Of a stretch of 50,650 bases of DNA, positions 20,085 to 39,687 are shown in pieces. This DNA comes from a virus. Its lineage: Duplodnaviria > Caudoviricetes. The notes under the pieces are model-generated. The model searched no databases, had not been told where the DNA came from, and saw nothing but the letters and a program-made list of their open reading frames with translations. The stretch is taken from positions 1 through 50,650 of IMG/VR virus record IMGVR_UViG_3300035164_000339. One strand, written 5' to 3'. The position numbers and the translations under genes were made by a program. Numbering within the stretch: the stretch's first letter is position 1; each line of letters starts with the position of its first letter.

Positions 20085-21953
20085 TTACCAATTAGAGATA
20101 AAATTAGGCTTTTTAGCCGATTTAGTTTGATTTAATCTTATCTTAGCCTCCTTTAGAGGCTTTTTCTCTTCAAATCTCTTAGCAAATTGATCATATATAG
20201 TTTTTCTGTCATATTTTTGCAATAATCTTTGAAAACTAGCGTATGCATAGACCATTTCATCTAATGCTTCGTTAGCTTGGTTCTTTTTCTTAACCCAAAC
20301 ACGTTCTTGATACCCATTTTTGTGTTTTAATATTTGTCTTTCTGCTGTTAATTCTTCAAAGTAAGCCTGAGTTGTTGTTGGATAAAAATGTATATATCCA
20401 TGACCTACTTCTGCATCTTTTAGCTTGTTATGTAACGTAGTTTTGATAATATCAACACCAACTGGATATAAACCTAGTCCTCTCTTAAGAACTTTACCTC
20501 GAAAGTTAATATCTACCCTAGAAATCTTTCCTAATGGTGGTTTGCCCTTAATACCAATACCTTTTATACCTATCAAACCTAATTGTTCTCTTTCTCTAAC
20601 GTACTGATAAGTTTCTTGAGTGTAATGACCACCAGTATCGATAGCTGCTGTATCTATTTTTAATTCTTTACCATCTTCATTTTTATATTTACTTTGCAAG
20701 ACCTCATCAAGCTGCGCCCAGAGATCCGCTCTGGCTGGTGAGCCATATATAACTTTTCTATCAATAAGATACATTTCTTCATTACGACCAAAACCTATAA
20801 CTGACATACTTAATCTGTCATCCTGTACGTCAATACCTAACGTAAGTATTAGAACTTCCCTTGGTGGTATGCCTTCTTTGTATGTTTCTTCTGCTGCACG
20901 TTTTGATAATCCTTCTGCACTAGCTTTTGTATGATATTCATCTTCGTACACTTCTCCACAAGTTACGTTTACAAAAGTTTTTAGCTGTTCTTGGTCATCC
21001 TTACAAGCAAGAAACTCTTCCATTAAATTTTCCCAGCTTGCATTCGGTGAGTAAGAATATGCAGCCCATATATGAAAACCAACGTGCTTACCGTTAGATG
21101 GTGCAGTAGCTCGCCATTCGCCACGTTCTACCATCCATCTTTTTTTTGTATGAGGAATATGATGATTACATTTTTCGCATTTGTATATTGTTGTACTTGG
21201 ATCATTTTCAAAACACTCAAAATTTGCCCATCTTAGATACTGCATATGATTGCATTTTGGGCATGGTACATAATATCGCCGTTGATCCGTTTGATTAAAT
21301 AATTTTTCTATGCGACTAAAGTCTTTAACCGTTGGCGTTGACCCTGCAACTATTTTTCTGTTTGCAAAAAATTCTGTACGCTTTATTCCAAGCTTTATTT
21401 GATCACCTTCAGTTCCGGCAGAGGCTGGATAGCCATCTGTCTCATCAAACAGCACTATACGTCTAGATACTCTTCTAAATCCTCTAGGTGAGTTAGCACC
21501 TACAAGAGTTAAATTACCACCGGGAAATAATTTCTGTAAAAGTGTATTTTGACCATCTTTTGCTTTTGCGTCACTTACTAATCCTTGTAAACATTTTGTA
21601 TCACGAAGCATTGGCGCAATCTCTTCTTTTGAGTAACCTGTAGCATCTTCAATAGTTGGTTGTACGATCATTATTGGACAAGGATCGTTGTGAATGTGGT
21701 AAGCAATAATGTGATTAAGAATTTTAGAATATCCAACCCTTGCAGATTTCATAACTGATATTTGTTCAATATTAGGATCAGTAACTGCATCCATAATCCC
21801 TTTTTGATATGGCAATGTGCGCCACCTACCACCCTCTGCTGAACTTTCTACGGAAAGATATGCAAATTGATCGGCCCACGCACTAAGCGTTAATTTTTTA
21901 GGTGGTAAGAATGCTGCGTATGCTTTTTTTTCTAAATCGAAAATACTTGTCAT
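20085..21953 (-). CDS. Terminase large subunit, lambda GpA family
   Basis: KSARVGYS Walker A, LFDETDGYP, GSTPT, YYVPCPKC, GIDVQDDR, IDTGG, NEALD. Confidence 0.95.
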   Translation of the reverse strand: MTSIFDLEKKAYAAFLPPKKLTLSAWADQFAYLSVESSAEGGRWRTLPYQKGIMDAVTDPNIEQISVMKSARVGYSKILNHIIAYHIHNDPCPIMIVQPTIEDATGYSKEEIAPMLRDTKCLQGLVSDAKAKDGQNTLLQKLFPGGNLTLVGANSPRGFRRVSRRIVLFDETDGYPASAGTEGDQIKLGIKRTEFFANRKIVAGSTPTVKDFSRIEKLFNQTDQRRYYVPCPKCNHMQYLRWANFECFENDPSTTIYKCEKCNHHIPHTKKRWMVERGEWRATAPSNGKHVGFHIWAAYSYSPNASWENLMEEFLACKDDQEQLKTFVNVTCGEVYEDEYHTKASAEGLSKRAAEETYKEGIPPREVLILTLGIDVQDDRLSMSVIGFGRNEEMYLIDRKVIYGSPARADLWAQLDEVLQSKYKNEDGKELKIDTAAIDTGGHYTQETYQYVREREQLGLIGIKGIGIKGKPPLGKISRVDINFRGKVLKRGLGLYPVGVDIIKTTLHNKLKDAEVGHGYIHFYPTTTQAYFEELTAERQILKHKNGYQERVWVKKKNQANEALDEMVYAYASFQRLLQKYDRKTIYDQFAKRFEEKKPLKEAKIRLNQTKSAKKPNFISNW

Positions 21954-22591
21954 CCTAGTTGCCAATTATGTAAAAGTTCTAATTGATTAGATGGATACGG
22001 AGTTTCATCTAATACATTTTGAATTTTATTAAGTCTTGCTTTTGAATAAAATGGTTGATTTTTATACCATTCAATCATGTTTTTACTTCTTTTATCTTGA
22101 TTACATGAACGACAAGAAGGTACGATATTCGCCAAACAATGACTGCCATTATTTTTCTTGGGAATAACGTGATCTATTTCTAAACTATTTTGGTGACTTC
22201 TATCTAATATTTCTAATTTAATACCGCAATACGCACATTTATTATTAAATGTATTAACTCTAGCAATAATATTTTTGTGGAAAATTTTTTCTGCATGATT
22301 CAAACTGTCTTTAAATTTTTGTCTTCTACTTGCCTCTCGACTATATATTCTGCCTTCTAAAGTTTGATTCCAATTAATAGCTTTATTTTTATAATAATTT
22401 TTATTTTTTAAATAGTGTTTATGAGTTTGTATTTTTTTACAACAAACACATTTACCATTCTTTCTATCAGTAGGTTTGCATCTAACTGATTTGCCAGTAT
22501 TTCTATATTGATGATTATTACGACAAAGATCACCTAAATAATCGCCATGTTGAAATTCTCTATTATTTAACCAATTTATTATTTCACTCAT
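21950..22591 (-). CDS. HNH endonuclease
   Basis: CAYCG...IDHVIP...GSH...NIVPSCRSCN; N-terminal Cys/His cluster. Confidence 0.9.
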   Translation of the reverse strand: MSEIINWLNNREFQHGDYLGDLCRNNHQYRNTGKSVRCKPTDRKNGKCVCCKKIQTHKHYLKNKNYYKNKAINWNQTLEGRIYSREASRRQKFKDSLNHAEKIFHKNIIARVNTFNNKCAYCGIKLEILDRSHQNSLEIDHVIPKKNNGSHCLANIVPSCRSCNQDKRSKNMIEWYKNQPFYSKARLNKIQNVLDETPYPSNQLELLHNWQLG

Positions 22592-23076
22592 GCAACAGAT
22601 AATTCTTCTAAAGCTTCTCTAACAATGTCGTCAATACAACTAACTGCGCTGTTATCTAAATCAGGCAATCTTTGCTGCGCCTTTGATGCAACACCTAACA
22701 TTTTATTTCTTGTATTAGTAATAATCTTTTGCCAAGTATTGTTTACTTCTTCTACTGGAACAAGACTTTTTTCTTTTTCTTTACGCTCAAGCTCTAATAA
22801 CTCTGCTTTTAAATGCTCTGTTCTAGCCTTACTTTCGCCATACTCTGGATATTCAGTTTCAGATTGTGAAGATTTATATGTTTTATGTTCAATTTTTTTA
22901 ATTAATTTAGGCTCACTTCTTTTAGCCCACTCATCTTTCATCGTATCTGAGTTAATAACAATCTTGCCTTGATTATCTTTAATAGCCGTTAGTCTGCCTT
23001 GTTTTATAGCCATATATACAGCTTGGATAGTAACTCCCATCTCCTCTGCTGCTTGTTTTCTGGTGATTAATGCCAT
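22588..23076 (-). CDS. Terminase small subunit (Nu1-like)
   Basis: N-terminal HTH (RKQAAEEMGVTIQAV), KARTEHLKAEL.ELE...LVP coiled coil; first gene of the packaging operon. Confidence 0.88.
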   Translation of the reverse strand: MALITRKQAAEEMGVTIQAVYMAIKQGRLTAIKDNQGKIVINSDTMKDEWAKRSEPKLIKKIEHKTYKSSQSETEYPEYGESKARTEHLKAELLELERKEKEKSLVPVEEVNNTWQKIITNTRNKMLGVASKAQQRLPDLDNSAVSCIDDIVREALEELSVA

Positions 23077-23082
23077 AGAACT

Positions 23083-23263
23083 GTAAATGTTTTTATTTAC
23101 AATAGCGTAAATGTAAATATATGGTATAATACCGCATTTTTACTAGGGTTTGAGTAAATACCACACATCTAATATAGCGCAAATGTAAATACTGTAAATT
23201 TTTTGTGCCTACATATATTTTGCGATCTGAAAAACATCGCAGCGAGACAAGAAAAAAGAACCT
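23083..23263 (-). other. Candidate cos/packaging site
   Basis: Minus strand AGGTTCT (cf. lambda cosQ GGGTCCT) at 23257-23263, GCGAT/ATCGC inverted repeat at 23222-23240, TAGCGYAAATGTAAATA direct repeats at 23103 and 23175; upstream of TerS. Confidence 0.5.
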
Positions 23264-23649
23264 AATTAATTATACTTAGCAAAAAATGTATAACGCTTAA
23301 ATATTTTTAAGGCCGCTAATAATTTTTATAAAATATTATTTTAGCCGGCATATTTTGCGGCGAATTGTTTATATTTTTATGTGTTATTTTTGCGGCTATT
23401 GTTAACAATTAATGCCGCTAATTATTAGCATATAATTAACAATTAAGGCCGCTATTTTTGGCGCTAAGATATAAACAAATAAATAATATAAAAATATCTT
23501 TATAAGTTGCTAGTTTATGGCCGTTTAAGGCCGTTAAAAATTGTTTTATGGCCTAACATATCTAACAACAAAAAAGGCCGCCTTATAGCGTCATTACGGC
23601 CACTTATAGACATTATTTAATTATATTTATTATTGCTAATAATAGGCAT

Positions 23650-23699
23650 AAAAAAAGCGCTATAAAGCGCAAAAAAAAGGCGGCTAATTATGCCGCCTT
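23650..23699 (-). terminator. Tandem intrinsic terminators
   Basis: GGCGGC/GCCGCC hairpin + T8, then GCGCT/AGCGC hairpin + T7 (minus strand). Confidence 0.8.
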
Positions 23700-23706
23700 A
23701 AATTAT

Positions 23707-23868
23707 TTAATTAATCGGCCGGCGCGTATTACGGCGCTTAATTTCTTTAAGGCATTTTATTATTAGTTGGTTATCATCGCTATTTTTAACGATTGATTTT
23801 AAATAATTAATACTAACTTCTTTTAAATCTTGATTTGTTAGCGGTAAGATTTTAGGGTTAAAAGTCAT
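23707..23868 (-). CDS. Hypothetical protein (53 aa)
   Basis: Read by hand: MTFNPKILPLTNQDLKEVSINYLK...; ends just before the terminators. Confidence 0.6.
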   Translation of the reverse strand: MTFNPKILPLTNQDLKEVSINYLKSIVKNSDDNQLIIKCLKEIKRRNTRRPIN

Positions 23869-23889
23869 AACAAAAAATAAAAATAAGGT

Positions 23890-24936
23890 TTAATAAATTA
23901 ATTCAATAGAGCCGCCGCCGATATGTTGGCGGCCTATCTTATCAGCTACAAAAAAGGCGCTTAAAATGTCGCCGCCGGCGCTTTTTTTTGCTTTAAGAAT
24001 GCCGGCGCATTTTTGCGGATCCGCCGGCCTATAATCCGAGTTATCAAAACTGCGCGCCGGTAGGTCAACGCGGCGGCCGGTATTGTCCGAGATAATAACG
24101 CGGCGCGGTATCCGGTCGGCCTTATCTAAGGTAACCGGAACCGCCAAACGATAGCCGGCATTAATCGCGCTTATTGCATCGGCCGCGCCGGTCGGCCTAT
24201 CGGCTACTAATGACGCGGTAACGTCAACGCCTAACGCCTTTAATCGGTTTAAATAGCTTAACGGCGCTTTACTGTATTCATACCAGATAATTGAATCATT
24301 CTTAAAAATTTCAGATATTACGCGCGGTTTATCTGAATAAATAATATTTAACCCATAGTAAGAATTTATATTATTTATTTCATTAACTGATAAGTTAATT
24401 TTTTTAAAATGTATGTTATTTTCGTCAGTTCCCTTTAATCGAACACTAAGAGCGCCGCCGGCCTTTTTATAGTGATGCGCTATTGAATAAATAAGGCCGC
24501 GCGCGTAGGCGGTCGGCCTATCGATAGCCGCCAAAGTACGGCGGCCGCGCGCATATTGAACCGCCTTAAAAATGTTAGACCGTCCGGAGAATACCAAACA
24601 AGAGCGGCGACAGCCGGCCGAACTATAAGCGCAACCGGTATAGTTTTTTAATTTATTAGTTAAATTAAATTTTTTTGATAATTCCGATAATTCCGCGATG
24701 TATTGGCGGTTTATAGTGTCGGCCGCGTTATCTGAATTAATAACGGCGCTTATCTGCTTATCTGGTAGATGGTGCAGAATGACCGCCGGCGGCATCGCGG
24801 CGCTTAAATTTTTTGATATTTTGGCGTTACTTGTTGCGCCGGTCATTAATCCGCTAATACTTAGCGAATAATCATTAAAAAGCTTTTTAATGTCGTTAGG
24901 CGTATTTAAGCGCCTTTTAATAGAATTAGAGTACAT
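23890..24936 (-). CDS. Gp88-like protein (Cys-cluster, radical-SAM-like)
   Basis: NAKISK, C-x6-C-x3-C (CAYSSAGCRRSC), SGR, VRLKGTDE, YEYSK, DNSDYRPADP match the remembered phage GP88 family pattern. Confidence 0.65.
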   Translation of the reverse strand: MYSNSIKRRLNTPNDIKKLFNDYSLSISGLMTGATSNAKISKNLSAAMPPAVILHHLPDKQISAVINSDNAADTINRQYIAELSELSKKFNLTNKLKNYTGCAYSSAGCRRSCLVFSGRSNIFKAVQYARGRRTLAAIDRPTAYARGLIYSIAHHYKKAGGALSVRLKGTDENNIHFKKINLSVNEINNINSYYGLNIIYSDKPRVISEIFKNDSIIWYEYSKAPLSYLNRLKALGVDVTASLVADRPTGAADAISAINAGYRLAVPVTLDKADRIPRRVIISDNTGRRVDLPARSFDNSDYRPADPQKCAGILKAKKSAGGDILSAFFVADKIGRQHIGGGSIELIY

Positions 24937-24942
24937 AAAAAT

Positions 24943-24964
24943 AAAAAAGGCGCATTTAAGCGCC
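24943..24964 (-). terminator. Hairpin/terminator
   Basis: GGCGC-N6-GCGCC + T6 on the minus strand. Confidence 0.55.
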
Positions 24965-24983
24965 GTTAAGGTGTAATAAAAAA

Positions 24984-25379
24984 TTAAGTTGTTAATTGAT
25001 AAGGTTTATCCCATCGGCCGATATTTATATCTAAAAAGTAGGCCGTATGAAAATAATCGGTCATAATGTCCGACTTATCGAACCATAAAGCGCCTTTCAT
25101 AGCTTTTTTTAGATCCTCATAAAAATTAAAGATATCGATGTTAATATCTTTATATTTTTCATTAGTTGGCCGGTAGGCGTTAGCTTGATAATAACCGCTA
25201 CTTCTTAGACTACTAACGGCGGCGGCCGCGCCTAATAAATCGAGGCGGCCGGCGCTGACGTTAGCACATAACGTCATATGATTCTTAATTGAAATAGTTC
25301 CCTTAAGGCCGTATTTTTTAAAAACCGCCTTAATGGCCGGCGCTAGTGTTTTTTTATCTTCTTGAGAAATAAAAGCCAT
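24984..25379 (-). CDS. Conserved marine phage early protein (DxxTDYF motif, LPD29-like)
   Basis: MAFISQE.KK.LAPAIK..KKYG.KGTI and WFDKSDIMTDYFH...INIGRWDKPY. Confidence 0.65.
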   Translation of the reverse strand: MAFISQEDKKTLAPAIKAVFKKYGLKGTISIKNHMTLCANVSAGRLDLLGAAAAVSSLRSSGYYQANAYRPTNEKYKDINIDIFNFYEDLKKAMKGALWFDKSDIMTDYFHTAYFLDINIGRWDKPYQLTT

Positions 25380-25381
25380 GT

Positions 25382-25573
25382 TTAAAAGTTCCTTTTAATA
25401 AAGTTGATAATTGTTAGATATTCGCCGGTAGTAGGCGCGCCGACCGCGTCAACGTGGCTAAACTCTTTTAAATCGTTAACCTTTTGATATAAAAGATTTA
25501 AAACAGCCATCTTAGAGCGGCTAGACATACGCGGCGCTTTTTTTTGTTGGTTTAATGTGTAACTTAAAGACAT
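25382..25573 (-). CDS. Hypothetical protein
   Basis: 63-aa ORF directly behind a promoter. Confidence 0.6.
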   Translation of the reverse strand: MSLSYTLNQQKKAPRMSSRSKMAVLNLLYQKVNDLKEFSHVDAVGAPTTGEYLTIINFIKRNF

Positions 25574-25604
25574 TTAAAAAATAAATTGTAAAGTGTACTT
25601 ATTA

Positions 25605-25663
25605 ACAATAAAGGCGCGCTTTTTATATGTCGCGCCTATATATGACACTTTTATTATTGGCCG
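25605..25663 (-). promoter_or_regulatory. Sigma70-type early promoter with upstream GCCAAT-N7-GTGTCA element
   Basis: GCGACA-17-TATTGT; upstream GGCCAATAATAAAAGTGTCA. Confidence 0.6.
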
Positions 25664-25686
25664 GGTCGGGGAGTCTATAAGAGCGC

Positions 25687-25710
25687 AAAAAAAAAGCGCT
25701 TATTAAGCGC
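25687..25710 (-). terminator. Intrinsic terminator
   Basis: GCGCTT/AAGCGC hairpin + T9 on the minus strand. Confidence 0.7.
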
Positions 25711-25731
25711 CTTTTATATGTTGTTTAGTGT

Positions 25732-25875
25732 TTAGCTATCTTGTAATACTGTATTAATTGCCTCTATGCGCTCTAATTGGTAGGTGTTTAAAGTGTTAAA
25801 AATGTTTAAACCAGTTGAAGCGATAAGGCCGAAAATGACTGTAAAACAAGCAAGTTTTAAGAAATTAGTTGACAT
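25732..25875 (-). CDS. Small membrane protein (47 aa)
   Basis: Read by hand: MSTNFLKLACFTVIFGLIASTGLNIFNTLNTYQLERIEAINTVLQDS; own promoter and terminator. Confidence 0.65.
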   Translation of the reverse strand: MSTNFLKLACFTVIFGLIASTGLNIFNTLNTYQLERIEAINTVLQDS

Positions 25876-25897
25876 GGTGTAATGTGTAACTATTTAT

Positions 25898-25955
25898 ATA
25901 ATTACATTTTTATTTTTAAATGTCGCGTCTTAGTGGACACTTTTTAACCCGGCAC
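25898..25955 (-). promoter_or_regulatory. Early promoter with GTGCC-N10-GTGTC element
   Basis: GTGCCGGGTTAAAAAGTGTCCAC, then GCGACA-17-AATTAT. Confidence 0.5.
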
Positions 25956-26409
25956 ATATATTAGTTATGCTTTTGAATCCTTCGGCTAGTGTCGGCGGCG
26001 CTTTTTTTAACTCTTTATAAATAGCGGTTAATACATTAAACGGAACCACGCGCGCGCGCTCTTTATTTCGCTTATAAATAACGCTAAATGGATAATTAAA
26101 GTAATAAGCGCTTATATCTGTATATTTAGCGAAATTTTTAATAATCTTAGCGCGGTATTCTTTTTTAAAATGTGTACTATCTAAAATAATATTTTTATCG
26201 GCCTTTATAGCGTCTTTAATGCGATCATATAAGACCGCCTCTATATCTTGCCAATTTCCTTGTATATGTTCCGCGCCGTATAACTCGGCGCGCATTTTAT
26301 CAGTCGATAAAATAACCGCGTTTTGATGTTTGGCGGCTATTTTTGGCGCGGCGGTAGTCTTACCGGACGCGGGCGCGCCTATAAGCATAATAATTTTATT
26401 CATTATCAA
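25930..26409 (-). CDS. P-loop kinase (AAA_33 / polynucleotide kinase-like)
   Basis: GAPASGKT Walker A, STD..R, IILDSTH, RN..R.R.VP, PP...EGF. Confidence 0.85.
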   Translation of the reverse strand: MIMNKIIMLIGAPASGKTTAAPKIAAKHQNAVILSTDKMRAELYGAEHIQGNWQDIEAVLYDRIKDAIKADKNIILDSTHFKKEYRAKIIKNFAKYTDISAYYFNYPFSVIYKRNKERARVVPFNVLTAIYKELKKAPPTLAEGFKSITNICAGLKSVH

Positions 26410-26599
26410 AACTATCTATAAATTGATTTAATTTTTTATAAACTTTTAAAATATCATTATCGGTTAATTTATGGCCGGCTATTATTTCGCCGATTAAATG
26501 CGCGGCTAATTCTTTTAAATTTTTATCGCTAGTATTATTTTTCATAAAAAATAATAAGCTTAAATTTATAAGCGCGTCTTTTTTTGTTTCTTTTTTCAT
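26396..26599 (-). CDS. Hypothetical protein
   Basis: ORF in the minus-strand early operon. Confidence 0.6.
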   Translation of the reverse strand: MKKETKKDALINLSLLFFMKNNTSDKNLKELAAHLIGEIIAGHKLTDNDILKVYKKLNQFIDSFDNE

Positions 26600-26603
26600 T
26601 TGT

Positions 26604-26927
26604 TTAAACCTCACTTTTAAAAACTTGATAAGGCGCGCCGCCTTTTATCGCGTCATATTCGCGAATTGATAAGGCGCTTATATTTGTATGTTGTTGAAAT
26701 TTTGCGAGCGCGCCGGCGTTATATCCAAAAATACTAAAATAAACTTGTTTATCAAAATCAAAATTTATTTTTTTTCTATTAATTATTAATTGGTAGTTAA
26801 TGCCTTTATTTGTTTCTACATTAAATATATAAAAATAATTATCTTGATACTCATTAAAATAATTATCAAGTATTAACCTAAGTTGATTAATTGAGGCGTA
26901 ACAATAGCCGACTTTTTTTAATTCCAT
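26604..26927 (-). CDS. Hypothetical protein
   Basis: 107-aa ORF behind a TATAAT promoter. Confidence 0.65.
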   Translation of the reverse strand: MELKKVGYCYASINQLRLILDNYFNEYQDNYFYIFNVETNKGINYQLIINRKKINFDFDKQVYFSIFGYNAGALAKFQQHTNISALSIREYDAIKGGAPYQVFKSEV

Positions 26928-26965
26928 AGTTTAAAAAAAAGATAATTTTTCATTTTTAATTTTGC

Positions 26966-27020
26966 ATTATATCGGCCTTAATTTCGCGGCATAATATGCC
27001 GCTTTTTTAATTGGCCGGGT
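26966..27020 (-). promoter_or_regulatory. Early promoter
   Basis: TATAAT at 26971-26966; GCGGCATA/TATGCCGC palindrome; CCCGGCCAAT shared with the 25660 promoter. Confidence 0.5.
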
Positions 27021-27163
27021 AGACAATAAAATATATATAAAAAGTAATTTTAGAGCGGCGCATATTTTGCGGCCGGTTAAAAAATATTTTTAATTTTAGA
27101 AATTATCAAAAAATTATTATTTATTTTTTGATGCAAAAAAATATTTTTAAAACCATTATTTAT

Positions 27164-27186
27164 TTATTGAGAATTATTCTCAATAA
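27164..27186. promoter_or_regulatory. Perfect 11-1-11 palindrome, Fur-box-like
   Basis: TTATTGAGAAT-T-ATTCTCAATAA; core TGAGAAT-N-ATTCTCA fits the 7-1-7 Fur consensus. Confidence 0.6.
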
Positions 27187-27360
27187 GCATTAATTGAGTT
27201 TTTAAAAATTCTAAAATTAAATTTTTTAACCATATAACAAAAATTGTATGTAAAATCGCCGAGATCCCTTGCTATGACTACGTTTTTGGCATTTTTTGTG
27301 TGATTTTTTGTGTGTGAGAAAACCCGAAAAAGCCTGTGATACCAAGGGCTTATAACCATT

Positions 27361-27510
27361 ACCTTGCAAGAACAGCACCTTTTTTGACCCTAAACCGAAA
27401 AGTCGCCGTAATTTAGCGCACTATATACCAATACCTTGCAAGAACTGCACCACCTAAACCGATATACCGCAAGAACTTTGTGTGATATAGACCAGACCCT
27501 TGCAAGAACT
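27361..27510 (+). repeat. Cluster of four GCAAGAAC direct repeats
   Basis: Copies at 27366, 27438, 27469, 27502; three are CCTTGCAAGAAC; TAAACCGA occurs twice between them. Confidence 0.9.
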
Positions 27511-28260
27511 TCATCGTTTTGGATATGGTTTAATATATTTTTCTATTTTGCTTTTATAATATTTTTTTTCTTTTTTATTTCCTAAAAAATAGAAATATCT
27601 TTTTTTTGATGCTTGAGGTACAAATTTTGCATTTGGATAGCATCGTAAAATATCTTCTTTTTTTTCGCTACCTACCTTTTGACGCATAGATCTATTTGTA
27701 AAAAGTTTGCCATTTATCTCAACGCCAAAACGATCATTATCGCGGCTATTAACATTAGGATTATTTTCACGCATTGAGCCAATGTAGTAAAAATTACACG
27801 CTTGATATATTGTTCCGATCTCTCCAGCGTGTTCATCTACTGTTGCTGTTACAACCTTGTACTCCTCTGGAAGCATCTTCATAGAGCTTGTAATAAGCTT
27901 AGATGCACTATGTGGATGCGACCAATGCACACAAGCACCGCGCGATAAAAGAATTATTTTTCCGGTATAATCGTATTTATCCCATGTACCAAGGTTCTCG
28001 CTGTATTCGGTGCTGTAGACCACAGCGCCGCCAAGGTTGCCATCGAAATAAATCCCGAAACAATATTTGACCATAGCTGGCATACATTGAAGCCACTCAT
28101 ATCTTTTTATAAGATTTGATGCTGTCCTGTAATCTATCGGTTTGACGATAGATTTTTTAATGTCTATATCAATGTCTTTCCACCACTCCCCGAATAGGTT
28201 CCAAGCATCCTCTTTTGCCATCTTGTCTTTGATGCGTTTTTGATGCGCTATATCAGACAT
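27511..28260 (-). CDS. Mom-like (GNAT-fold) DNA modification protein
   Basis: VKPID...A...I, FGIYFDG.L.G.VVY, LLSRGAC, SASKLI, D...GEIGTIYQACNFYYIG, KKRYFYFL resemble the Mu Mom family. Confidence 0.75.
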   Translation of the reverse strand: MSDIAHQKRIKDKMAKEDAWNLFGEWWKDIDIDIKKSIVKPIDYRTASNLIKRYEWLQCMPAMVKYCFGIYFDGNLGGAVVYSTEYSENLGTWDKYDYTGKIILLSRGACVHWSHPHSASKLITSSMKMLPEEYKVVTATVDEHAGEIGTIYQACNFYYIGSMRENNPNVNSRDNDRFGVEINGKLFTNRSMRQKVGSEKKEDILRCYPNAKFVPQASKKRYFYFLGNKKEKKYYKSKIEKYIKPYPKR

Positions 28261-28411
28261 CGTTTTTTGGAGTAATGTAGCCTTCGTACTTCAAGTCAAG
28301 GTCTAATGATTCTCTTTGATATTGTGTTTCATTAATATGACCAGCTAATAAGTCATCATCAAGCGCGGCTTTTTTTACTTGATATTCGTAATACTTTCCT
28401 TTTGGCATCAT
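28253..28411 (-). CDS. Hypothetical protein (52 aa)
   Basis: Read by hand: MMPKGKYYEYQVKK...; overlaps neighbours in the operon. Confidence 0.55.
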   Translation of the reverse strand: MMPKGKYYEYQVKKAALDDDLLAGHINETQYQRESLDLDLKYEGYITPKNDV

Positions 28412-28587
28412 TTTATATAACCTTTTTTTATTAAAGGATATTTTTTTATAAGTCTCTCTGGATTGTCACAGAATCGCCTTATAAAATCGACCTTATGTCG
28501 GTCAAGTTTTTCATTCTTGAAGGCAATATCGAGATACGCCTCCAAGTTTTTTTGTTGCCAAGCTGGCATTTTTTTATTTTCTGTCAT
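28408..28587 (-). CDS. Hypothetical protein (59 aa)
   Basis: Read by hand: MTENKKMPAWQQKNLE...; ATGA coupling at both ends, GGAG RBS. Confidence 0.6.
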   Translation of the reverse strand: MTENKKMPAWQQKNLEAYLDIAFKNEKLDRHKVDFIRRFCDNPERLIKKYPLIKKGYIK

Positions 28588-29033
28588 AACAACTCCTTAA
28601 ATCTTTTGTCGCCTCTATCTTTAATTAACTTGTTGCGATCATCAACAGGAATACCTTTATCAGCAATCATTGCCTTAAACACACAAAAAGGAATATCTTT
28701 TGCCGGTGTATTAGTTGATCGGAAATGTTCAATATCAGCAAGCATCTCTAATTCATACTTGGCTTCACGATTATGTCGCGTTAATAAAAAAATATCGAAA
28801 GCAATTTTATCAATTTTAGAAACATTATCTCGAATATAGTTTCTTATATCAAAACCATAATCTGAAAGTGCTTCTCGATGATTTAACTGATCTTTATATG
28901 ACAACTCCCCGAACCTTGAACTAGATACAATATCTAAATGTATCTGTAACCTTGCAATGTTTGCATTGGTGATTGATTGTAGATCTTCTAGTTGTTTTTT
29001 AAGATCTCTTATGTTGGTTTGAATGTTGGTCAT
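28584..29033 (-). CDS. Hypothetical protein
   Basis: 149-aa ORF, GGAGG RBS, coupled. Confidence 0.7.
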   Translation of the reverse strand: MTNIQTNIRDLKKQLEDLQSITNANIARLQIHLDIVSSSRFGELSYKDQLNHREALSDYGFDIRNYIRDNVSKIDKIAFDIFLLTRHNREAKYELEMLADIEHFRSTNTPAKDIPFCVFKAMIADKGIPVDDRNKLIKDRGDKRFKELL

Positions 29034-29215
29034 AATGCCTCCTTTTTTTTTAATTTAAATTGTGGAGATACAAATTGATCTCCGATTGTAGCTGATTCTA
29101 TTTTTTCAAAAACTGATTGTTGTTTATCAGTTAACTCAAAGTCCATGTCTCTGAGTATGTCATAGAGTTTGATGAATTCATATTTCTCATCAAAAGTAAT
29201 AGGAACATTAATCAT
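29030..29215 (-). CDS. Hypothetical protein
   Basis: Coupled ORF in the operon. Confidence 0.65.
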   Translation of the reverse strand: MINVPITFDEKYEFIKLYDILRDMDFELTDKQQSVFEKIESATIGDQFVSPQFKLKKKEAL

Positions 29216-29495
29216 TTGAAAAGCCTCTTTGTAACTGGATTGACCATTTTTTTAATGATGAAAGCTCAACTCCACATGAGTACATTTCAAAATCGCCATA
29301 AACGTCAGATTTCTCTAAAGAAACCATAACTTTAGTTGCATCATCTAAATTTACATAAAAATCGTGAATACGAAATTCTTCATTATGTTCATTCATAAGT
29401 AATGCACCCTTAAGTTCATTAAGTGATAATGATGAATCTTTTCCTATTTGCATTGCTCTAACTCCTGTAATGATTGTTCTATATTTTGGCGACAT
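29208..29495 (-). CDS. Hypothetical protein
   Basis: ORF in the operon. Confidence 0.6.
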   Translation of the reverse strand: MSPKYRTIITGVRAMQIGKDSSLSLNELKGALLMNEHNEEFRIHDFYVNLDDATKVMVSLEKSDVYGDFEMYSCGVELSSLKKWSIQLQRGFSND

Positions 29496-29635
29496 TTTGT
29501 TTTAAATGATTCGGGGAGTGTCTGGCCAATAGCTTCAGCTATATCTATACATTCTTGTGCTTTCTCTTCTGTTGAGGCAGTAAGAGCTAAACGTATAGCA
29601 AGAATGTATGCCTCGTAATCGTTAGTTGGTTTCAT
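29444..29635 (-). CDS. Hypothetical protein
   Basis: DYEAY.LA.RLALTA...E.A..C pattern seen in small cyanophage proteins. Confidence 0.6.
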   Translation of the reverse strand: MKPTNDYEAYILAIRLALTASTEEKAQECIDIAEAIGQTLPESFKTKCRQNIEQSLQELEQCK

Positions 29636-29795
29636 TTATAACCTCAACTGTTTTTACCCTAGAATCGCCAGCTTTTGTACTACTAGGATCAAGATAATCC
29701 TCATAAGTACATTGAACAGCTTCTTGTTCAGAATTTGCTTCAACAACATAAGTTTCAATGTACTCTTGAATCATTTTTACTTTATAAAATTTCAT
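29622..29795 (-). CDS. Hypothetical protein (57 aa)
   Basis: Read by hand: MKFYKVKMIQEYIETYVVEANSEQEA...; GGAGG upstream. Confidence 0.6.
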   Translation of the reverse strand: MKFYKVKMIQEYIETYVVEANSEQEAVQCTYEDYLDPSSTKAGDSRVKTVEVINETN

Positions 29796-29805
29796 CACCA
29801 TCCTC

Positions 29806-30063
29806 CTAGTTATATAAACCTGTATCTGATTCTCTTTGCCAAGGTGCTTTCTCTGGCAAGTTAGCTAGTAAATCTTCTAGCTCATCAATCTTAAGTTGAA
29901 ACTTGTTAATAGTCTTTTCTGTTTTTGCTCTCCTCTGTCTCTTTTTAAGACCCATAAGAACAATTTTGATCTCTTCTATTGTAAGACGTAGATCAAAGGC
30001 AGCTTCGCAACCTTCCATAATTTCGACAGTTGCGCCGCATCCTGATACATAAGAATTTGACAT
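29806..30063 (-). CDS. Hypothetical protein
   Basis: 85-aa ORF with tandem TTACACC leader. Confidence 0.65.
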   Translation of the reverse strand: MSNSYVSGCGATVEIMEGCEAAFDLRLTIEEIKIVLMGLKKRQRRAKTEKTINKFQLKIDELEDLLANLPEKAPWQRESDTGLYN

Positions 30064-30102
30064 TTGGTGTAAGGTGTAATGTTTACAATTTAAATATTAC
30101 TA

Positions 30103-30888
30103 CTAACCTTTGAGCGCAACAGCCCAAAGTGGACACCTTGTAGATTGTCCTAGTTGTTTTTGTATAGATCTGCTATTTATTTTTACTACTATTCCGTCTG
30201 TTGGTAAGAAAGTAAAATAATTAGATTCAAAGAATCTACCATCTAGCCAATCATTATGACATTTTTTTATCTCGTCATAGGTATTAGCTTCTACATAAGG
30301 AACAACACGAAAATCTAGCTTAGTAAGCTCCTTAAGATTATCCTTGTGATCATTCTGACTATTTAATATTTGAAACGCTACAAAACTTAGCAAGTGGCAC
30401 TCTGGTTGTATTCTACGAAGCTGTGCAGCGGCTATCCTTTGTGACTTAGGTGCGTGTTCATTGAATGCATATAACTCTCCTCTAACAGTAAATTTTCCAT
30501 ACCTTGGAACTGTTAAAGGGATGTCAGGGACTTCTAATGCATATCTTGTTACATCTCTACCAGATCTTGTATATGCTCTTTGTAGTTCGCCTGATTGGTA
30601 TACAAGAGCAAGTGCAACGCCATCTATTTTTGGTTCTATTACAAGTGGTGTATTTTTACGAATTCCACGATACCATTCTTCTAAACGGCAATTATCTAAA
30701 GATAATAAACTATCCCCTCCAAAGGGTTTGCCAAACACTTTATGATTAGGATTTACACTATGCAATTTATTACAAAGTTCGTCAAAGAGATCATCAGACA
30801 TAATAGGTTTTCCTATGTAGTACGCTCGACTCGCCCTAACTATCTCTGCGGCGAGTTTTTCTTCGAGGGGAAAATTGATGTCGGTCAT
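30103..30888 (-). CDS. NAD+-dependent DNA ligase-like protein, adenylation domain only
   Basis: AYY.G.P.MSD..FD (Ia), LLSLDN, EPKIDG, TRSGRDVT, VRGE, DGIVVK, WAVALK; stops before the OB fold. Confidence 0.85.
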   Translation of the reverse strand: MTDINFPLEEKLAAEIVRASRAYYIGKPIMSDDLFDELCNKLHSVNPNHKVFGKPFGGDSLLSLDNCRLEEWYRGIRKNTPLVIEPKIDGVALALVYQSGELQRAYTRSGRDVTRYALEVPDIPLTVPRYGKFTVRGELYAFNEHAPKSQRIAAAQLRRIQPECHLLSFVAFQILNSQNDHKDNLKELTKLDFRVVPYVEANTYDEIKKCHNDWLDGRFFESNYFTFLPTDGIVVKINSRSIQKQLGQSTRCPLWAVALKG

Positions 30889-30928
30889 AAGGTGTAAAAT
30901 AAAGTATATGTAAATCAGTTTACATATA

Positions 30929-31663
30929 TCATCTAATCTTTGCAAGTGATTTTCTTAATTCACTTTTAAAAATGTAAGGCATATCTTTATCAAGATGTCT
31001 TTTAGTTTGATCAAAAAATTCAAATTTTCTAGCAACTTGTGGTCTTCTTTTTGCAAGTGTAAATAGTAAACCAATATTACCTCCCTTTACACGATAAATA
31101 CCATCGGCTAAATTATTCGTTGGCCTTTTACCATTAGATGGAACTGCAAAATATCTATATTGATTACCTGTAATTTTTCCACTACCTTTTGACTTAATTA
31201 GGCCAGCTTTAACTTTGGAATATTGCGAAGCTTTCATACCTGTGCCATATTTATTAGGCTCAACGGCATCACTTTTTAAAACTGGAATAGGATATCTGTT
31301 GCTTAAACCAAGGCCAGAATAATTTCTAAGCCAATAACTAAATTTAGTTTCATATGCCGGTGCTAATCCACCAGCAACTCTTTTTTCAACTGGTGCTAAA
31401 TATTTTCTTGGGCTATTACCTTTTCCTCTAATGCTTTTTATAAAGAAAAACATTGAGTCTTCATTTTCTACTTTGTATAGAACAGAGCTTAAGGTTAACG
31501 GTACAGGGTTCTCAAAAATTCTAGACATATATGGCATCATCTTTTTTTTATTCAAAAAACCAAATTTATAAAGTGATTTTTTCTGCGCTTCTGGAAGTGC
31601 CGCTAATTCTATTCCCTTAAGTTTATTAGTAAACTTACTTGCATCAAATTTTATTGAAAGCAT
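30929..31663 (-). CDS. Basic protein resembling a tail-completion/neck (gpZ or HK97 gp10-like) protein
   Basis: FENPVP.TLSS (cf. FDRPTPFT), YLAP, NKYG, GIYR motifs. Confidence 0.5.
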   Translation of the reverse strand: MLSIKFDASKFTNKLKGIELAALPEAQKKSLYKFGFLNKKKMMPYMSRIFENPVPLTLSSVLYKVENEDSMFFFIKSIRGKGNSPRKYLAPVEKRVAGGLAPAYETKFSYWLRNYSGLGLSNRYPIPVLKSDAVEPNKYGTGMKASQYSKVKAGLIKSKGSGKITGNQYRYFAVPSNGKRPTNNLADGIYRVKGGNIGLLFTLAKRRPQVARKFEFFDQTKRHLDKDMPYIFKSELRKSLAKIR

Positions 31664-31676
31664 AAACTATAACCCT

Positions 31677-31960
31677 GCAAGAACTGCTTGTATTATCGCA
31701 CTAAACCATAATGGCGCAAGAACGCGATGAGACTGCACCCTACCATGCCCTACCTACCATACCGGTTCTAACACTTTCCTTTTTTTTACGTTTTTATCCG
31801 CTATATAGCCATATATGCCCCTATAACGCTCTTTATATATAAAAATATATAATATATATAAAAAGGTAGGGTAAGTATAGACACGGCTGAAATAAGTTGG
31901 GCTGCGGTCATTTTCAACGTGTCCATACCTCGGCTAGGTAGGTACACAGGTCTAGACACG
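31677..31960. other. Candidate replication origin
   Basis: Two GCAAGAAC, CCTACC x3 facing GGTAGG x2 across a TA-only tract (about 31833-31864), TAGACACG x2; directly downstream of the primase-helicase. Confidence 0.5.
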
Positions 31961-34105
31961 TTCCAAGTCTCGAATGTAGACCCATTTGCGACCAGCCCTA
32001 CCTCCTCTACGCCGTTTTTCAAAGCCTAATTCTTTTAAAATATTGGCGCATTGCATTTGATCATATCTATTTTGTCGTTCTACAGGTTTTTCTATTGCCT
32101 CAGTTAGAACAAGTTCTGTGGTTAGTTCTCTGCCATTATTTCTTTGAACATAATCTTGAATAACAGTTTTCCAAGGGTTATCGATTATATATTGTTTGTT
32201 TTCCTCATTAACAGTAATTTGATTTTCTTTGCTTAATAATAAATTTTCTCCTTTGCCATGATCATATAAAGCACAGGCGGCACTCCATATAGCATCCCTT
32301 TGATCAAGTAATGCTTCACAATCTATTGGATTGTCTATCGTTTTTGTCGTAACTACGCACCAAAAGCGGCGATTCCCTGTTTCATCAACTAGAAATCCAT
32401 CTTGACGATTACTAGTTCCCACAATAATTCCTCTACGTTTAAATTTTTCTGCAACTTTGCCATATGGAACACGATAAACATCAGTTGATTGTGAAAGAAA
32501 AGATTTTATATCTCCAGCCATTTTTTTGTTTGTGATCGCTTCCAATTCAGCCCATTCCATAATCCATGCGGAACTAAGGACTTGAAGCGAATCTTTCCCA
32601 TTTATGTCTCGTAATGCATCGCTAAAAAACTCCCCTCCAAGAACTGACCAAAATGTAGATTTTCTTGCGCCTTGATCTCCAATAATTACACAAGCATTAT
32701 CAAATTTACAGCCTTCATCGTATGCTCTTGCTACTGCGGCAATAAGAGTTTTGCGTAGCATTTCATCATATAGAGTTGGTTTATCAAACTTTTCATCTTC
32801 TGGTCTTAAATATTTAGTAGCTAATCTATCTATGTAAGCTGGTGCTACATTTTTACTTACATGATCTAAATAATCAGTTACTGGATTATATTCATTTTGC
32901 CTTGCGACTTGAACTACTACGTCAAAAGCAACGTCTTTACTTACTCGCTTGTTTTGCCTTGCAAGTTCTAAATAATATCTTTCAATTGATCTTTTACCCT
33001 CACATATTTTTGCATTCTCGCCAGTTCCAAGTTGTATTTGCTGAGTATATACATTATATCTAAATGCATTAGGACTTTCTTTCGGTATGCTTTCAAGTTC
33101 TGCTAATAATTCATTAGCATCAATTTTTTGCATTTTATCTATAGTTATTGTTACTTCTTCTTTTGGATTTTCTGGATTAAAGGTTTTTATTACTTTTGGA
33201 ATAATAAATCCATTTTCTTTTGCAAAATACCAAAAAGATCCAGCATTTATCTGTGAACCGCCAGAATAAGCAACTTGTTCTATACCTCCCCATTCTGGAG
33301 AATGAGTTTTCATCATTTGTACAGCATCTGCCGCAGATTTCCCTGCATCTTCGCAAGCTTTTATAAGACCCCATAAAATATTTCGATACATATGGTAAGT
33401 GTTTGTATTAGGTTTTCTTGGTGGTATGCAGAATAATGCTTTTTCAACAACTTCTATTGGTGCTTTTTCAAACTCATCGAAAGAAACAGAATTTTTAACA
33501 CGTTCATGTTGTTTTAATGTTGGCAAACAAGATTCAATCTCTTTGTAAGAATATTTTTTATTTGAGTTATGAATAATTTTTGTCATACCGCCTTGCTTTC
33601 CATTATCTTTCATATGAAAAGTTCCAGCTAAACGCATAACTCTTGAAGGATTTTTTAAAGCTCTATCGGCATCTGCATGATCTAATAATCTTTCTTGAAT
33701 AGGTTTCCAAGTTTTAGGGTCTATAACTTTTTTAAGTACCCAATAGTTATGTATAGATTTACCTCCAGTATCTATTTGAAGGGTAGGTTCGGGGAGTCCT
33801 AATTCTTTGTAGGCATTAATTTGTTCTTCCTTTGGTCTATCATCCCATTCACAAAAAAACGCTCGGCAAGCAGTTATTTCACTATCGGTATCGCCGCCAT
33901 CATTAACAACTATATAAACACCACGACCTTCTGATTGCATTCTATGAATCCATTCTCCATCAGCATGAGATTTCTTTCCATGATCTGTAGCTTTTAGTGG
34001 ATGCCCTTTTGGAAAAAAGGATCTAAGCCTAACTGTTTTTATATCTTTTCCGAGGATGTCAAGAAAGGATCGCCATTCATTGCGATCTAAATTTAAAGCA
34101 AGCAT
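31952..34105 (-). CDS. RepB-type primase / PriCT-2 / VirE (VapE) helicase
   Basis: FFCEWDD, TGGKSIHNYW, NPSRVMRLAG; GDQGARKST, EWAELE, DETGNRRFW. Confidence 0.9.
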   Translation of the reverse strand: MLALNLDRNEWRSFLDILGKDIKTVRLRSFFPKGHPLKATDHGKKSHADGEWIHRMQSEGRGVYIVVNDGGDTDSEITACRAFFCEWDDRPKEEQINAYKELGLPEPTLQIDTGGKSIHNYWVLKKVIDPKTWKPIQERLLDHADADRALKNPSRVMRLAGTFHMKDNGKQGGMTKIIHNSNKKYSYKEIESCLPTLKQHERVKNSVSFDEFEKAPIEVVEKALFCIPPRKPNTNTYHMYRNILWGLIKACEDAGKSAADAVQMMKTHSPEWGGIEQVAYSGGSQINAGSFWYFAKENGFIIPKVIKTFNPENPKEEVTITIDKMQKIDANELLAELESIPKESPNAFRYNVYTQQIQLGTGENAKICEGKRSIERYYLELARQNKRVSKDVAFDVVVQVARQNEYNPVTDYLDHVSKNVAPAYIDRLATKYLRPEDEKFDKPTLYDEMLRKTLIAAVARAYDEGCKFDNACVIIGDQGARKSTFWSVLGGEFFSDALRDINGKDSLQVLSSAWIMEWAELEAITNKKMAGDIKSFLSQSTDVYRVPYGKVAEKFKRRGIIVGTSNRQDGFLVDETGNRRFWCVVTTKTIDNPIDCEALLDQRDAIWSAACALYDHGKGENLLLSKENQITVNEENKQYIIDNPWKTVIQDYVQRNNGRELTTELVLTEAIEKPVERQNRYDQMQCANILKELGFEKRRRGGRAGRKWVYIRDLERV

Positions 34106-34132
34106 AAGTGTAAGGGATAAAAAAAAGCCTTG

Positions 34133-34531
34133 TTAGACTTTTAAAATTTGCAAGGCATCTTTAACGGTACGAGCAACGCCGACAATGCCGCCAGAACTCT
34201 TTACCTTTTGAAGCCAATTTTGTTGTACATCTGTCAGTTTGCCACGTTCTGTTTTAATTTCAATAGAAACAAACTGAGCAACTTCTTGTCCTATCATCTC
34301 AGGAGTAATCTTGACAGTCTTAAAACCAATAAGGTCAGAACTACCCTTTGCCAATCCAAACTGAACCCATCTGCCTGTTCTAGGATCTGGAAGTTTTCCA
34401 GTTTCGTTGCGAAATAAGCGCAAATCAGATCGTTGTCCAAGAGCTAATCGAATTTCTTGTTGAATTTTTGTCTCTGAATTAGACAAAGTTGAGATTATAA
34501 AATCTAATAATAAAATAGCAGAGTTTTTCAT
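34133..34531 (-). CDS. VRR-NUC domain nuclease (true start may be near 34486)
   Basis: E..IQ..IR, LFRNETG, GSSDLIG, IEIKT..G....Q..W. Confidence 0.85.
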   Translation of the reverse strand: MKNSAILLLDFIISTLSNSETKIQQEIRLALGQRSDLRLFRNETGKLPDPRTGRWVQFGLAKGSSDLIGFKTVKITPEMIGQEVAQFVSIEIKTERGKLTDVQQNWLQKVKSSGGIVGVARTVKDALQILKV

Positions 34532-34536
34532 AATTA

Positions 34537-37304: not shown

Positions 37305-37308
37305 TATG

Positions 37309-37354
37309 TTGACAATTGTTATCAAATGATATATGATGTTATATAAGAAGTCAA
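37309..37354. promoter_or_regulatory. Overlapping divergent sigma70 promoters
   Basis: Plus: TTGACA(37309)-17-TATGAT; minus: TTGACT(37354)-17-TATCAT. Confidence 0.8.
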
Positions 37355-37361
37355 GTTTTTT

Positions 37362-39685: not shown

Positions 39686-39687
39686 TT

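Follow-up and report, generated by a model that had tools for sequence, protein, structure and literature searches.

In phage lambda, the side of the cos site that carries the small terminase subunit gene (TerS) is packaged first, and the opposite end is packaged last and ejected first. For the lambdoid phages LLS and MD8, the cited sections of one report describe Chi sites that are numerous, co-oriented, and clustered toward the right end, a pattern explained there by RecBCD entering only at that end (PMC12315714). In phage T5, the first-step-transfer region is given as 7.9% of the genome in the cited portion of another report (bioRxiv 10.1101/866236), and conjugative plasmids are described, in the excerpts relied on here, as having anti-defense leading regions in which the DNA that enters first carries the genes needed first (PMC11541004). 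The terminal segment examined here belongs to IMG/VR virus record IMGVR_UViG_3300035164_000339 (Duplodnaviria; Caudoviricetes), and the window is that entire record, one contig of 50,650 bases. Positions 23238-27075, called the cassette below, form with high confidence a right-terminal accessory module that encodes a GP88-family protein, a PNK-like kinase, and six other proteins, and its DNA has a base composition of its own. The identity and position of this module are secure, while the mechanism behind its composition is unproven.

Blocky DNA at the genome's right end

Bases were classed as strong (S; G or C) or weak (W; A or T), and the ratio of observed to expected changes between S and W along the sequence was calculated for successive intervals. 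This ratio was 0.56-0.80 in all nine 500-nt intervals of 23001-27500 and 0.85-1.15 in the other 92, in agreement with the original prediction, made from the letters of the window, of about 4 kb of pure-G/C runs alternating with pure-A/T runs. In 200-nt intervals, values below 0.78 were found only at 23151-25800, 25901-27250, 31651-31950, and 10101-10300. The blocky DNA begins about 25 nt from an AGGTTCT heptamer (minus strand, 23263-23257), the place at which an abrupt change had been predicted, and stops near 27075; within 23265-27075, the S/W changes amounted to 0.42-0.80 of the expected number. The small patch at 31651-31950 is intergenic, lies upstream of a gene at 30929-31663, and holds two copies of the repeat GTTCTTGC; it was flagged in the related loci L177, L182, and L186 too.

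The dinucleotide odds in the cassette were 2.22 for CG and 2.41 for GC, compared with 0.68 and 1.30 in the rest of the genome, and those of the eight mixed dinucleotides were 0.50-0.71, compared with 0.88-1.12; the odds for TA were 1.15. Runs of S were bimodal, made up of singletons and of blocks of 4-12 nt, and the pair spacing of G/C blocks of at least 4 nt peaked near 13, 27, and 40 nt. Helical phasing of 10-11 bp was not seen in the cassette, where the spacing was about 13 nt and the spectral peaks were broad. GCG/CGC, GGC/GCC, and CGG/CCG were 4-7-fold more frequent, and GCGC, CGCG, GGCC, and CCGG 7-19-fold more frequent, with GGG/CCC reduced (2.8 versus 7.3 per kb). Distinct hexamers were fewer (1013 versus 1228-1520), strand skews were near zero, the period-3 S/W signal of coding DNA was gone, and the GC content of third codon positions (GC3) was 0.355, compared with 0.203 in the rest of the genome.

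This type of DNA was confined to one module. Thirty-five of the 36 metagenome loci with a GP88 relative were blocky, the exception being a match of 26% identity, and all 35 carried the same module at the same place. No similar blocky DNA was found in about 2.4 Mb of other viral loci. None of the 79 viral loci with a homolog of the 131-amino acid cassette protein had a 500-nt interval below 0.8, and none of the 96 TerS or Mom loci had a 400-nt interval below 0.75. Among the distant GP88 loci, 14 of 55 had a few intervals at 0.70-0.78.

Analysis of the codons showed that the bias works on DNA, not on codons or tRNAs. In codons that start with two S bases, the third base was S in 116 of 121 cases if the next base was S and in 37 of 82 if it was W (p = 6e-17). 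The corresponding counts were 44 of 65 versus 10 of 67 for WS codons and 48 of 138 versus 34 of 283 for WW codons. The dependence recurred in four divergent cassette groups, and the rest of the genome showed no dependence of the third base on the next codon (0.20 versus 0.15 and less). Codon choice at the level of tRNA was therefore rejected as an explanation, because the third base follows the first base of the next codon. The non-coding leader at the end of the module was blocky as well. Codons for Ala, Gly, Arg, and Pro shifted from A/T-ending forms to GCC/GCG, GGC, CGC, and CCG, and those for Lys, Asn, Phe, Tyr, Ile, Asp, and Glu retained A/T endings; among the encoded amino acids, Ile, Lys, Asn, and Tyr were more frequent and Gly, Glu, Thr, and Val less so. 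The fraction of third bases that were S after an SS prefix was 0.64-1.0 in seven of the eight cassette genes (the eighth has six such codons) and 0.04-0.38 in every gene outside (0.17 in TerS and 0.31 in the adjoining gene, Mom), which amounts to a step at both borders.

Substitutions were compared in 24 GP88 genes with 74-95% amino acid identity, using only full-length open reading frames (ORFs) and skipping columns with gaps or N. Four-fold sites had turned over, with three or four different bases in many columns. Despite this turnover, GCN codons were 81% S, and CGN and GGN codons stayed C-rich. Parsimony gave 54 changes from S to W, 46 from W to S, 35 from S to S, and 19 from W to W. The blocky state is thus a substitution equilibrium under a force that still acts, rather than a fading import, and a decaying relic of a GC-rich donor was rejected since the changes in the two directions are balanced. 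Homologs of the 131-amino acid protein, at 30-53% identity, were encoded by ordinary DNA.

The blocky DNA lies at a physical end of the genome. A minus-strand ORF of about 1008 amino acids appears to span the contig junction (1-590 and 48214-50650, in phase from 50650). Since it continues in phase over the junction, the assembly is circular and was cut at an arbitrary point, and the ends of the contig are not physical ends. With high confidence, the window represents a whole marine siphophage genome, assembled as a circle of 50.65 kb, and the phage has a lambda-type cos system. Of 79 viral contigs encoding a TerS relative, 46 start within 1 nt of one homologous position (23237 in the window), which sits 161-168 nt upstream of TerS. 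Four cassette-side contigs (L182, L186, L189, and L199) terminate 13 nt past this shared start, with the same 13 nt, and another (L190) terminates exactly at it. A complete relative of 52,363 bp, G001, has its own 13-mer at both contig ends, and the tails of GC-rich relatives have the same layout of a GGGTCC-type heptamer, about 19 nt, and then a 13-mer. The 13-mer found at both ends is probably a filled-in 5' overhang. These contig termini place a 13-nt cohesive end, cosN, at 23225-23237 (the minus strand reads ATGTTTTTCAGAT), where a genome end near 23240 had been predicted. That the shared ends are assembly breaks caused by odd composition was rejected because G001 and the GC-rich phages end at the same place.

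The AGGTTCT heptamer (23257-23263, minus strand), which we take to be a counterpart of lambda cosQ, lies 19 nt upstream of the cut and is kept as GGTTCT or GGGTCC(T/C), at the same distance, in both AT-rich and GC-rich relatives. On the other side of the cut, between it and TerS, a cosB-like region (23077-23224, minus strand) contains repeated TTTACA motifs, which by their position are candidate TerS binding sites; this region is 89% identical to that of the relative L001, compared with 76% for TerS. TerS itself is encoded at 22588-23076 on the minus strand (PHROG 57, E 1.9e-23; Pfam Phage_Nu1, a weak match, E 0.068). Because the order of cassette, cosQ-like heptamer, cut, TerS-binding region, and TerS is like that of lambda, the cassette is predicted to be the right end, packaged last and ejected first.

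Metagenome runs were examined as Logan contigs. In the likely source run, X1, one contig of 3726 nt (21540-25265) runs through both cos and the blocky border with zero differences, and depth was flat over the cassette and its flanks (13-18). These two observations show that a joined form exists and that cassette and genome are stoichiometric, and on them a copy-number anomaly or a separate molecule was rejected.

At the inner border, a conserved untranslated control region of 435 nt (27076-27510, minus strand) lies upstream of the cassette. It is not blocky, and the blockiness starts just downstream of it. Mean column identity was 84% in nine sequences, among them L182, which lacks Mom. The original prediction that a palindrome and four repeats close the cassette was borne out. 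A 17-nt palindrome, TTGAGAAT-T-ATTCTCAA (7-1-7; 27167-27183), presumably similar to a Fur box, overlaps the best sigma-70-like promoter match (27183-27155, minus strand), and four co-oriented GTTCTTGC(A/G) repeats follow at 27366-27509 on the minus strand. An A/T-rich stretch is also present in the region. The four-copy cluster was found in all ten relatives that reach the border. Across the genome there are 11 copies of GTTCTTGC (27366-44196), compared with 1.63 +/- 1.19 expected, and none of 100 shuffles reached 11. All 11 are on the minus strand (11:0), the strand with its 3' end at the right end. Their distance from this end is 4.1-21 kb, and they all fall within the right-hand 41% of the linear map, in pairs or clusters. 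Tandem copies are spaced 31-33 nt apart with a TATA-like element downstream, and two copies lie 13-52 nt upstream of the gene at 30929-31663. The repeats could be Chi-like polar sites or phage-specific promoter or regulator sites.

Compositional islands in relatives and possible causes

A total of 248 GP88 homologs were found, and those at 33-39% identity come from 55 loci in phages of 38-67% GC. The GP88 gene was the last large gene before cos in five distant loci whose tails show the same cos architecture. Distant GP88 genes lie in discrete GC islands of 2-4 kb, with examples in L253 (7700-11619), L259 (7000-11342), L216, L220, L225, L231, L235, and L236 that have 65-79% GC between flanks of 45-63%. 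On average, the GC content of the GP88 gene was 15.4 points above that of the distant flanks, and the excess was over 8 points in 34 of 39 loci, these being the loci that remain of 51 listed after 12 with less than 1.5 kb of distant flank were excluded; four partial-match loci (L265-L268) are not in the list. In the control, homologs of the 131-amino acid protein were 1.4 points above their flanks, with 2 of 46 loci above 8 points (46 of 79 loci, picked by hand for their flanks). The GC content of the GP88 gene was about 0.65-0.76 whatever that of the backbone (0.475-0.637).

The islands of the GC-rich relatives are also dense in co-oriented octamers. CCTGGCCG had 27 matches in L259, compared with 2.04 expected; of these, 26 shared a strand and 25 fell within the terminal 3.7 kb. 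Its strand ratio in L253 was 27:1 inside the island and 1:0 outside, and there it falls in several reading frames and in non-coding tandem copies. G001 has neither GP88 nor a compositional anomaly, although its cos design is the same. Across the group, then, the GP88 module at the right end forms a compositional island, of which the S/W-clustered form is the version of the AT-rich clade. Other arrays were observed as well: a GC-rich tandem array about 1.8 kb from the right end of G001 (L213), in which GGGACTCGG occurs about 9 times, and a 26-nt unit present about 10 times at the island border of L236 (7124-7380).

A tentative explanation, favored here in spite of considerable doubt, is that DNA metabolism follows a local regime of its own from the free right end up to the array of polar repeats. 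In lambda-type phages, end-dependent helicase-nucleases, like recombination, would have access through the right end alone. DNA lying distal to whichever polar site is recognized first would be degraded, exchanged, and resynthesized from sister or co-infecting genomes, and the unit would as a result have its own regime of substitution and repair-correction, with sharp borders. Such a regime would account for borders that look like those of a unit, for a pattern that is symmetric between the strands and alike in coding and non-coding DNA, for the mosaicism, for a cassette of higher similarity between lineages, for a GC3 that is raised, and for the resemblance to Chi-rich right ends. Identity to L001 is 85.7% for the cassette, compared with 76% for TerS and 72.7% for the large terminase subunit (TerL), and among relatives the cassette is a mosaic both in the genes it contains and in their identity; these may be signs of exchange. 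Chi sites read by an enzyme that enters at the right end would have the orientation that GTTCTTGC has.

Several points weigh against a regime of this type. A process started at the end should give a gradient from the genome end, and none was seen in the per-gene third-base values. To our knowledge, no documented bias of repair or recombination yields S/W clustering together with gain of CpG and GpC and loss of GGG/CCC, and repair or recombination as the source of the clustering is purely conjectural. G001, with the same cos design, has no blocky or GC-raised end. The phage encodes its own RecE-like protein and RecT, and the Chi-rich class, as the sections of that publication cited above describe it, is without a Rec module. 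The 31-33-nt tandem spacing of GTTCTTGC is no less compatible with promoter or regulator sites than with Chi, and within the cassette no oriented motif stands out (best z below 3; AAGCGCC 9:4). GTTCTTGC is at most a candidate for the Chi of the host. It is also conceivable, but decidedly unlikely, that the GP88 module is a DNA-level device for the moment at which the free end is exposed, acting as a T5-style first-step leader. In such a device, the GC-rich members would write dozens of co-oriented Chi-like octamers into the genes of the module, the AT-rich marine clade would keep 3.8 kb S/W-clustered and clamped by CpG/GpC, with a palindromic operator and the polar repeats closing it off about 8% into the genome, and the segment would enter, survive, and be expressed before the rest.

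The main rival to an end-linked metabolic regime, itself unlikely, is selection on a property of the duplex at the first-entering end, with CpG/GpC blocks raising stacking stability at a fixed, mutation-limited composition. A clamp about every 13 bp might resist fraying, unwinding, and end-dependent enzymes before circularization. With a nearest-neighbor energy table from the literature, stacking was -1.267 kcal/mol per step in the cassette, compared with -1.238 in mononucleotide shuffles (z -14.2; -2.1 to -6.5 in eight control stretches). Enrichment is greatest for GC and CG, the steps of highest stability, and far lower for GG/CC; the spacing peaks of the S blocks fit a regular clamp, the strand-symmetric pattern covers coding and non-coding DNA, and the GC-rich relatives raise GC in the same module. 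However, the gain in energy is small, about 2% per step, the weakest step, TA, is not avoided, and G001 manages without the pattern. No known process reads stability over 3.8 kb, and a step exactly at the operon border is not predicted by selection for stability. A further rival is expression-linked selection on one operon, since the blocky span coincides with an operon and its start lies about 80-100 nt downstream of the palindrome and the best-matching promoter-like site; the selection would be for a hairpin-rich stable RNA, for pause or terminator signals that need antitermination, or for low translation. Terminator-like hairpins exceed those in shuffled DNA, and RNA folding had a z of -1.22 +/- 0.16 in the sense direction, compared with -0.55 and -0.75 in two controls. 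This explanation is nevertheless quite improbable: the excess of structure is small and nearly equal in antisense (-0.92; paired p 0.09), the leader past two terminators is as blocky as the genes, a strand-symmetric composition is unusual for selection on RNA, and the next-codon dependence excludes choice at the level of tRNA. Inverted 4-mer S blocks at 11-14 nt numbered 36, compared with 18 direct ones, of 278 pairs. Hairpin-dense RNA or DNA as the main cause was rejected because the excess structure is weak. A foreign origin, in which the module comes from a pool (another phage lineage or a satellite) with a genome-wide signature and is swapped via cos and the control region, would account for a cassette closer to L001 than the adjoining packaging genes are, for the mosaic content, and for a GP88 gene whose GC is independent of the backbone; most cassette contigs are also short. 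It is highly improbable in that all 35 blocky loci are the same module in the same place, the other viral loci are without such DNA, the substitutions are at equilibrium and not decaying, and depth is flat across the cassette and flanks. No replicon that is blocky throughout was found, in a limited search in which the collections were not scanned by S/W class.

Mom was central to the original prediction, in which the leader had shed Mom contexts (S-A-S) or restriction/BREX sites and would stay unmodified or invisible until early proteins act. The neighboring gene is Mom-like, as proposed: it encodes a 249-amino acid Mom-family protein (27511-28260, minus strand; PF25680, E 3.2e-23; PHROG 1384, E 2.1e-25), with a Pfam match of 82.9 bits against a cut-off of 27.1 that covers profile positions 3-202 of 202. 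S-A-S contexts (SAS and STS) were indeed depleted, at 30.4 versus 77.8 per kb or 2.6-fold rarer, as was SASNY, the Mu motif, which may not be that of this Mom (18.8 versus 37.9 per kb). CAG/CTG was 6-fold depleted, and palindromes of mixed class were rarer (GATC 0.75 versus 4.11 per kb, TGCA 1.0 versus 5.5). The contexts are not lost, however. The cassette retains 75 SASNY sites, SWS triplets match the expectation from first-order S/W clustering (observed/expected 1.05), WSW is depleted too, and GAC/GTC is near normal, at 0.81-0.88 of control density. Nor is the leader poor in restriction sites, a property claimed for the leading segments of T5 and T7: 6-bp palindromic sites numbered 122, compared with a mean of 52.4 (range 37-82) in 56 control stretches of equal length, a 2.3-fold enrichment; 4-bp palindromic sites numbered 437, compared with a mean of 233.9, and 40 of the 64 hexamer palindromes were absent, compared with 42.9 in the controls. 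Of the expected co-occurrence, the part concerning the repeat cluster held throughout (10 of 10 relatives) and the part concerning Mom held incompletely: among the ten close relatives whose sequence extends to this place, nine have Mom beside the cassette, L182 has no Mom there next to its cassette and repeat region, and 17 loci have Mom homologs (57-83% identity) in other contexts, none with blocky DNA. A Mom-free or restriction-invisible leader is extremely improbable, as clustering alone explains the SWS counts, the 75 SASNY sites stay, palindromic sites are enriched, Mom is not tied to the cassette, and G001 has the same cos architecture without a blocky end.

Genes and control sequences of the module

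The cassette contains eight minus-strand ORFs of 47-348 amino acids, in line with the prediction of about eight small genes. The first, next to the control region, is a 107-amino acid ORF (26604-26927) that is mosaic, with 59-96% identity where the neighboring genes of relatives have about 90%. It is followed by a 72-amino acid ORF (26396-26614) conserved in 12 related loci, a PNK-like P-loop kinase of 159 amino acids with the kinase domain only (25930-26409; PF13671 AAA_33, E 2.3e-21; PHROG 505, E 6.5e-23), a hydrophobic ORF of 47 amino acids (25732-25875), a 63-amino acid ORF (25382-25573) conserved in 19 related loci, and the 131-amino acid protein (24984-25379; PHROG 10415), whose homologs were found in 79 loci. 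The GP88-family protein of 348 amino acids (23890-24936; PF17338, E 1.7e-6; PHROG 1617) has invariant cysteines at positions 102, 109, and 113. The last gene before cos is a 53-amino acid ORF (23707-23868) for which no Pfam or PHROG family was found; it is conserved in L001, L179, and L188. In Pfam and PHROGs, the only recognizable cassette products were the kinase domain and the GP88 family.

The AlphaFold2 model of GP88 had a pLDDT of 83 and a pTM of 0.86. A Foldseek search of the PDB with this model gave no fold match below E 0.3, and the ESM Atlas returned GP88 clusters alone. Deposited phages gave no near-identical or protein-level match for the region or for GP88, a host and prophage scan of genome contigs with GP88 gave just a fragment of 31% identity from an archaeal metagenome-assembled genome, and for one homolog that is 56% identical (P0109) no locus was found in the viral contig collection. 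None of the cassette proteins matched a known anti-defense family in Pfam or PHROGs, with PADLOC and dedicated anti-defense libraries not searched, and the three Rfam matches were all far below gathering scores.

The cassette had been predicted to carry its own promoters and terminators. The terminators were supported, with 15 terminator-like hairpins compared with 6.8 +/- 2.9 in shuffles; the promoters were not, promoter-like sites being no more frequent than by chance (20 versus 20.9 +/- 4.6). Two of the hairpins lie in the blocky non-coding terminal leader (23264-23706, minus strand), which also contains direct repeats of the AAGGCCGCTAAT type in four copies. This repeat family occupies 23297-23691, and the last 216 nt before the end hold three minus-strand copies of TAGCGGC. 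At the same place, L253 has a different 9-mer, GCTGATATC, in about 5 copies. A protein of the right end may bind the leader repeats as an array.

Outside the cassette, the minus strand encodes, in order, a helicase (35166-37382), a VRR-NUC protein, a VapE-like primase/helicase, a protein with a ligase adenylation domain, and Mom, and, beyond Mom and the cassette, TerS, an HNH gene, TerL (20085-21965), the portal, and head and tail genes. The ligase-related protein, of 280 amino acids (30103-30945), consists of the adenylation domain of NAD-dependent DNA ligase alone (PF01653, E 3.5e-24). A plus-strand block (37517-46447) encodes the RecE-like PDDEXK exonuclease (DUF3799, E 4.9e-33), which adjoins the RecT-like protein (PHROG 561, E 2.2e-54). 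A tblastn search with TerL matched 846 phage records, the best, annotated "large subunit terminase", at 46.6% identity over 91% of the query; the matches include records annotated as a lambda-type large terminase and a "terminase large subunit gpA" record beside "gpNu1". The HNH endonuclease gene (21950-22591; PF01844, E 1.3e-10) lies between TerS and TerL, is missing in L001 and L180, and is skipped in three contigs of run X5 that join 21949 directly to 22588; it has the look of a homing-type gene that was inserted recently. In runs X1, X3, and X4, the summed contig depth in the bin 27408-27674 was 110-216, compared with 0.7-17 in the neighboring bins. Far more abundant genomes in the same samples therefore share the last repeats and the 3' part of Mom with the phage.

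Significance and comparison with known systems

Since the genome is replicated as a single molecule, a 3.8-kb unit with its own equilibrium neighbor rules needs a local cause. Third positions between G/C neighbors are 96% G/C in the cassette, compared with 20% elsewhere in the genome, the unit is the DNA end that would be exposed first, and the same module appears as a compositional island in distant relatives. If end-initiated recombination and repair are the cause, a virus would here offer a clean example, found in nature, of a substitution regime tied to position, perhaps one of biased gene conversion. If selection is the cause, sequence beyond coding and known sites would be shaped for entry or survival of the leading end. 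In practical terms, the shared ends of metagenome contigs map cos sites to the base, and terminal islands both break assemblies (most cassette contigs are 1-5 kb) and can mislead composition-based prediction of host or gene origin.

No such cassette was found described in open-access word searches of the literature, which are not proof of absence. Of the features of a moron, the cassette has atypical composition, its own terminators, and presence or absence among relatives, with promoter-like sites not above chance. As with Mu Mom, the neighboring gene is a clear Mom-family member; the system differs in that the position of Mom is not tied to the cassette and the composition does not specifically avoid the Mu motif. 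Plasmid leading regions differ in that, according to the excerpts relied on above, they enter as single strands.

Like T5, as far as the cited portion of that report goes, the phage has at one end a segment that makes up about 8% of its genome (here 3.8-4.3 kb out of 50.65 kb), carries poorly conserved small genes, and is closed by an untranslated region with direct repeats and a palindrome that is better conserved than the adjoining genes; here the palindrome is 3.9 kb and the repeats are 4.1-4.3 kb from the genome end. T5 differs in having terminal repeats of 10 kb, by the same portion of the report, where the present phage has cohesive ends, and the Pfam and PHROG matches of the eight cassette ORFs include no A1, A2, or dmp annotation. 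With LLS and MD8, as the cited sections describe them, the phage shares an over-represented octamer co-oriented to the right end (GTTCTTGC, 11:0), and the GC-rich relatives have CCTGGCCG-type octamers (26:1 and 27:1) confined to the terminal island. The published class differs in lacking, by those sections, a Rec module of the RecE-like and RecT kind encoded here. In addition, the first GTTCTTGC here is 4.1 kb inside the end, which leaves the cassette itself unprotected, and the tandem spacing of the repeats resembles arrays of protein-binding sites or promoters.

In layout, the end resembles the right end of lambda-type cos phages, which has the order cosQ-cosN-cosB-Nu1 and accessory "moron" genes beside cos. 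The phage has a lambda-type TerL, TerS beside the cut, a 13-nt overlap at both ends, a conserved heptamer upstream of the cut, and, from the regulatory region to cos, atypical accessory genes with terminator hairpins. Its overhang measures 13 nt, compared with 12 nt in lambda. The end described here also differs from that of lambda in having neighbor-dependent S/W clustering that is kept at equilibrium, not merely a different GC content, and in carrying a module, marked by GP88, that is conserved across AT-rich and GC-rich phages.

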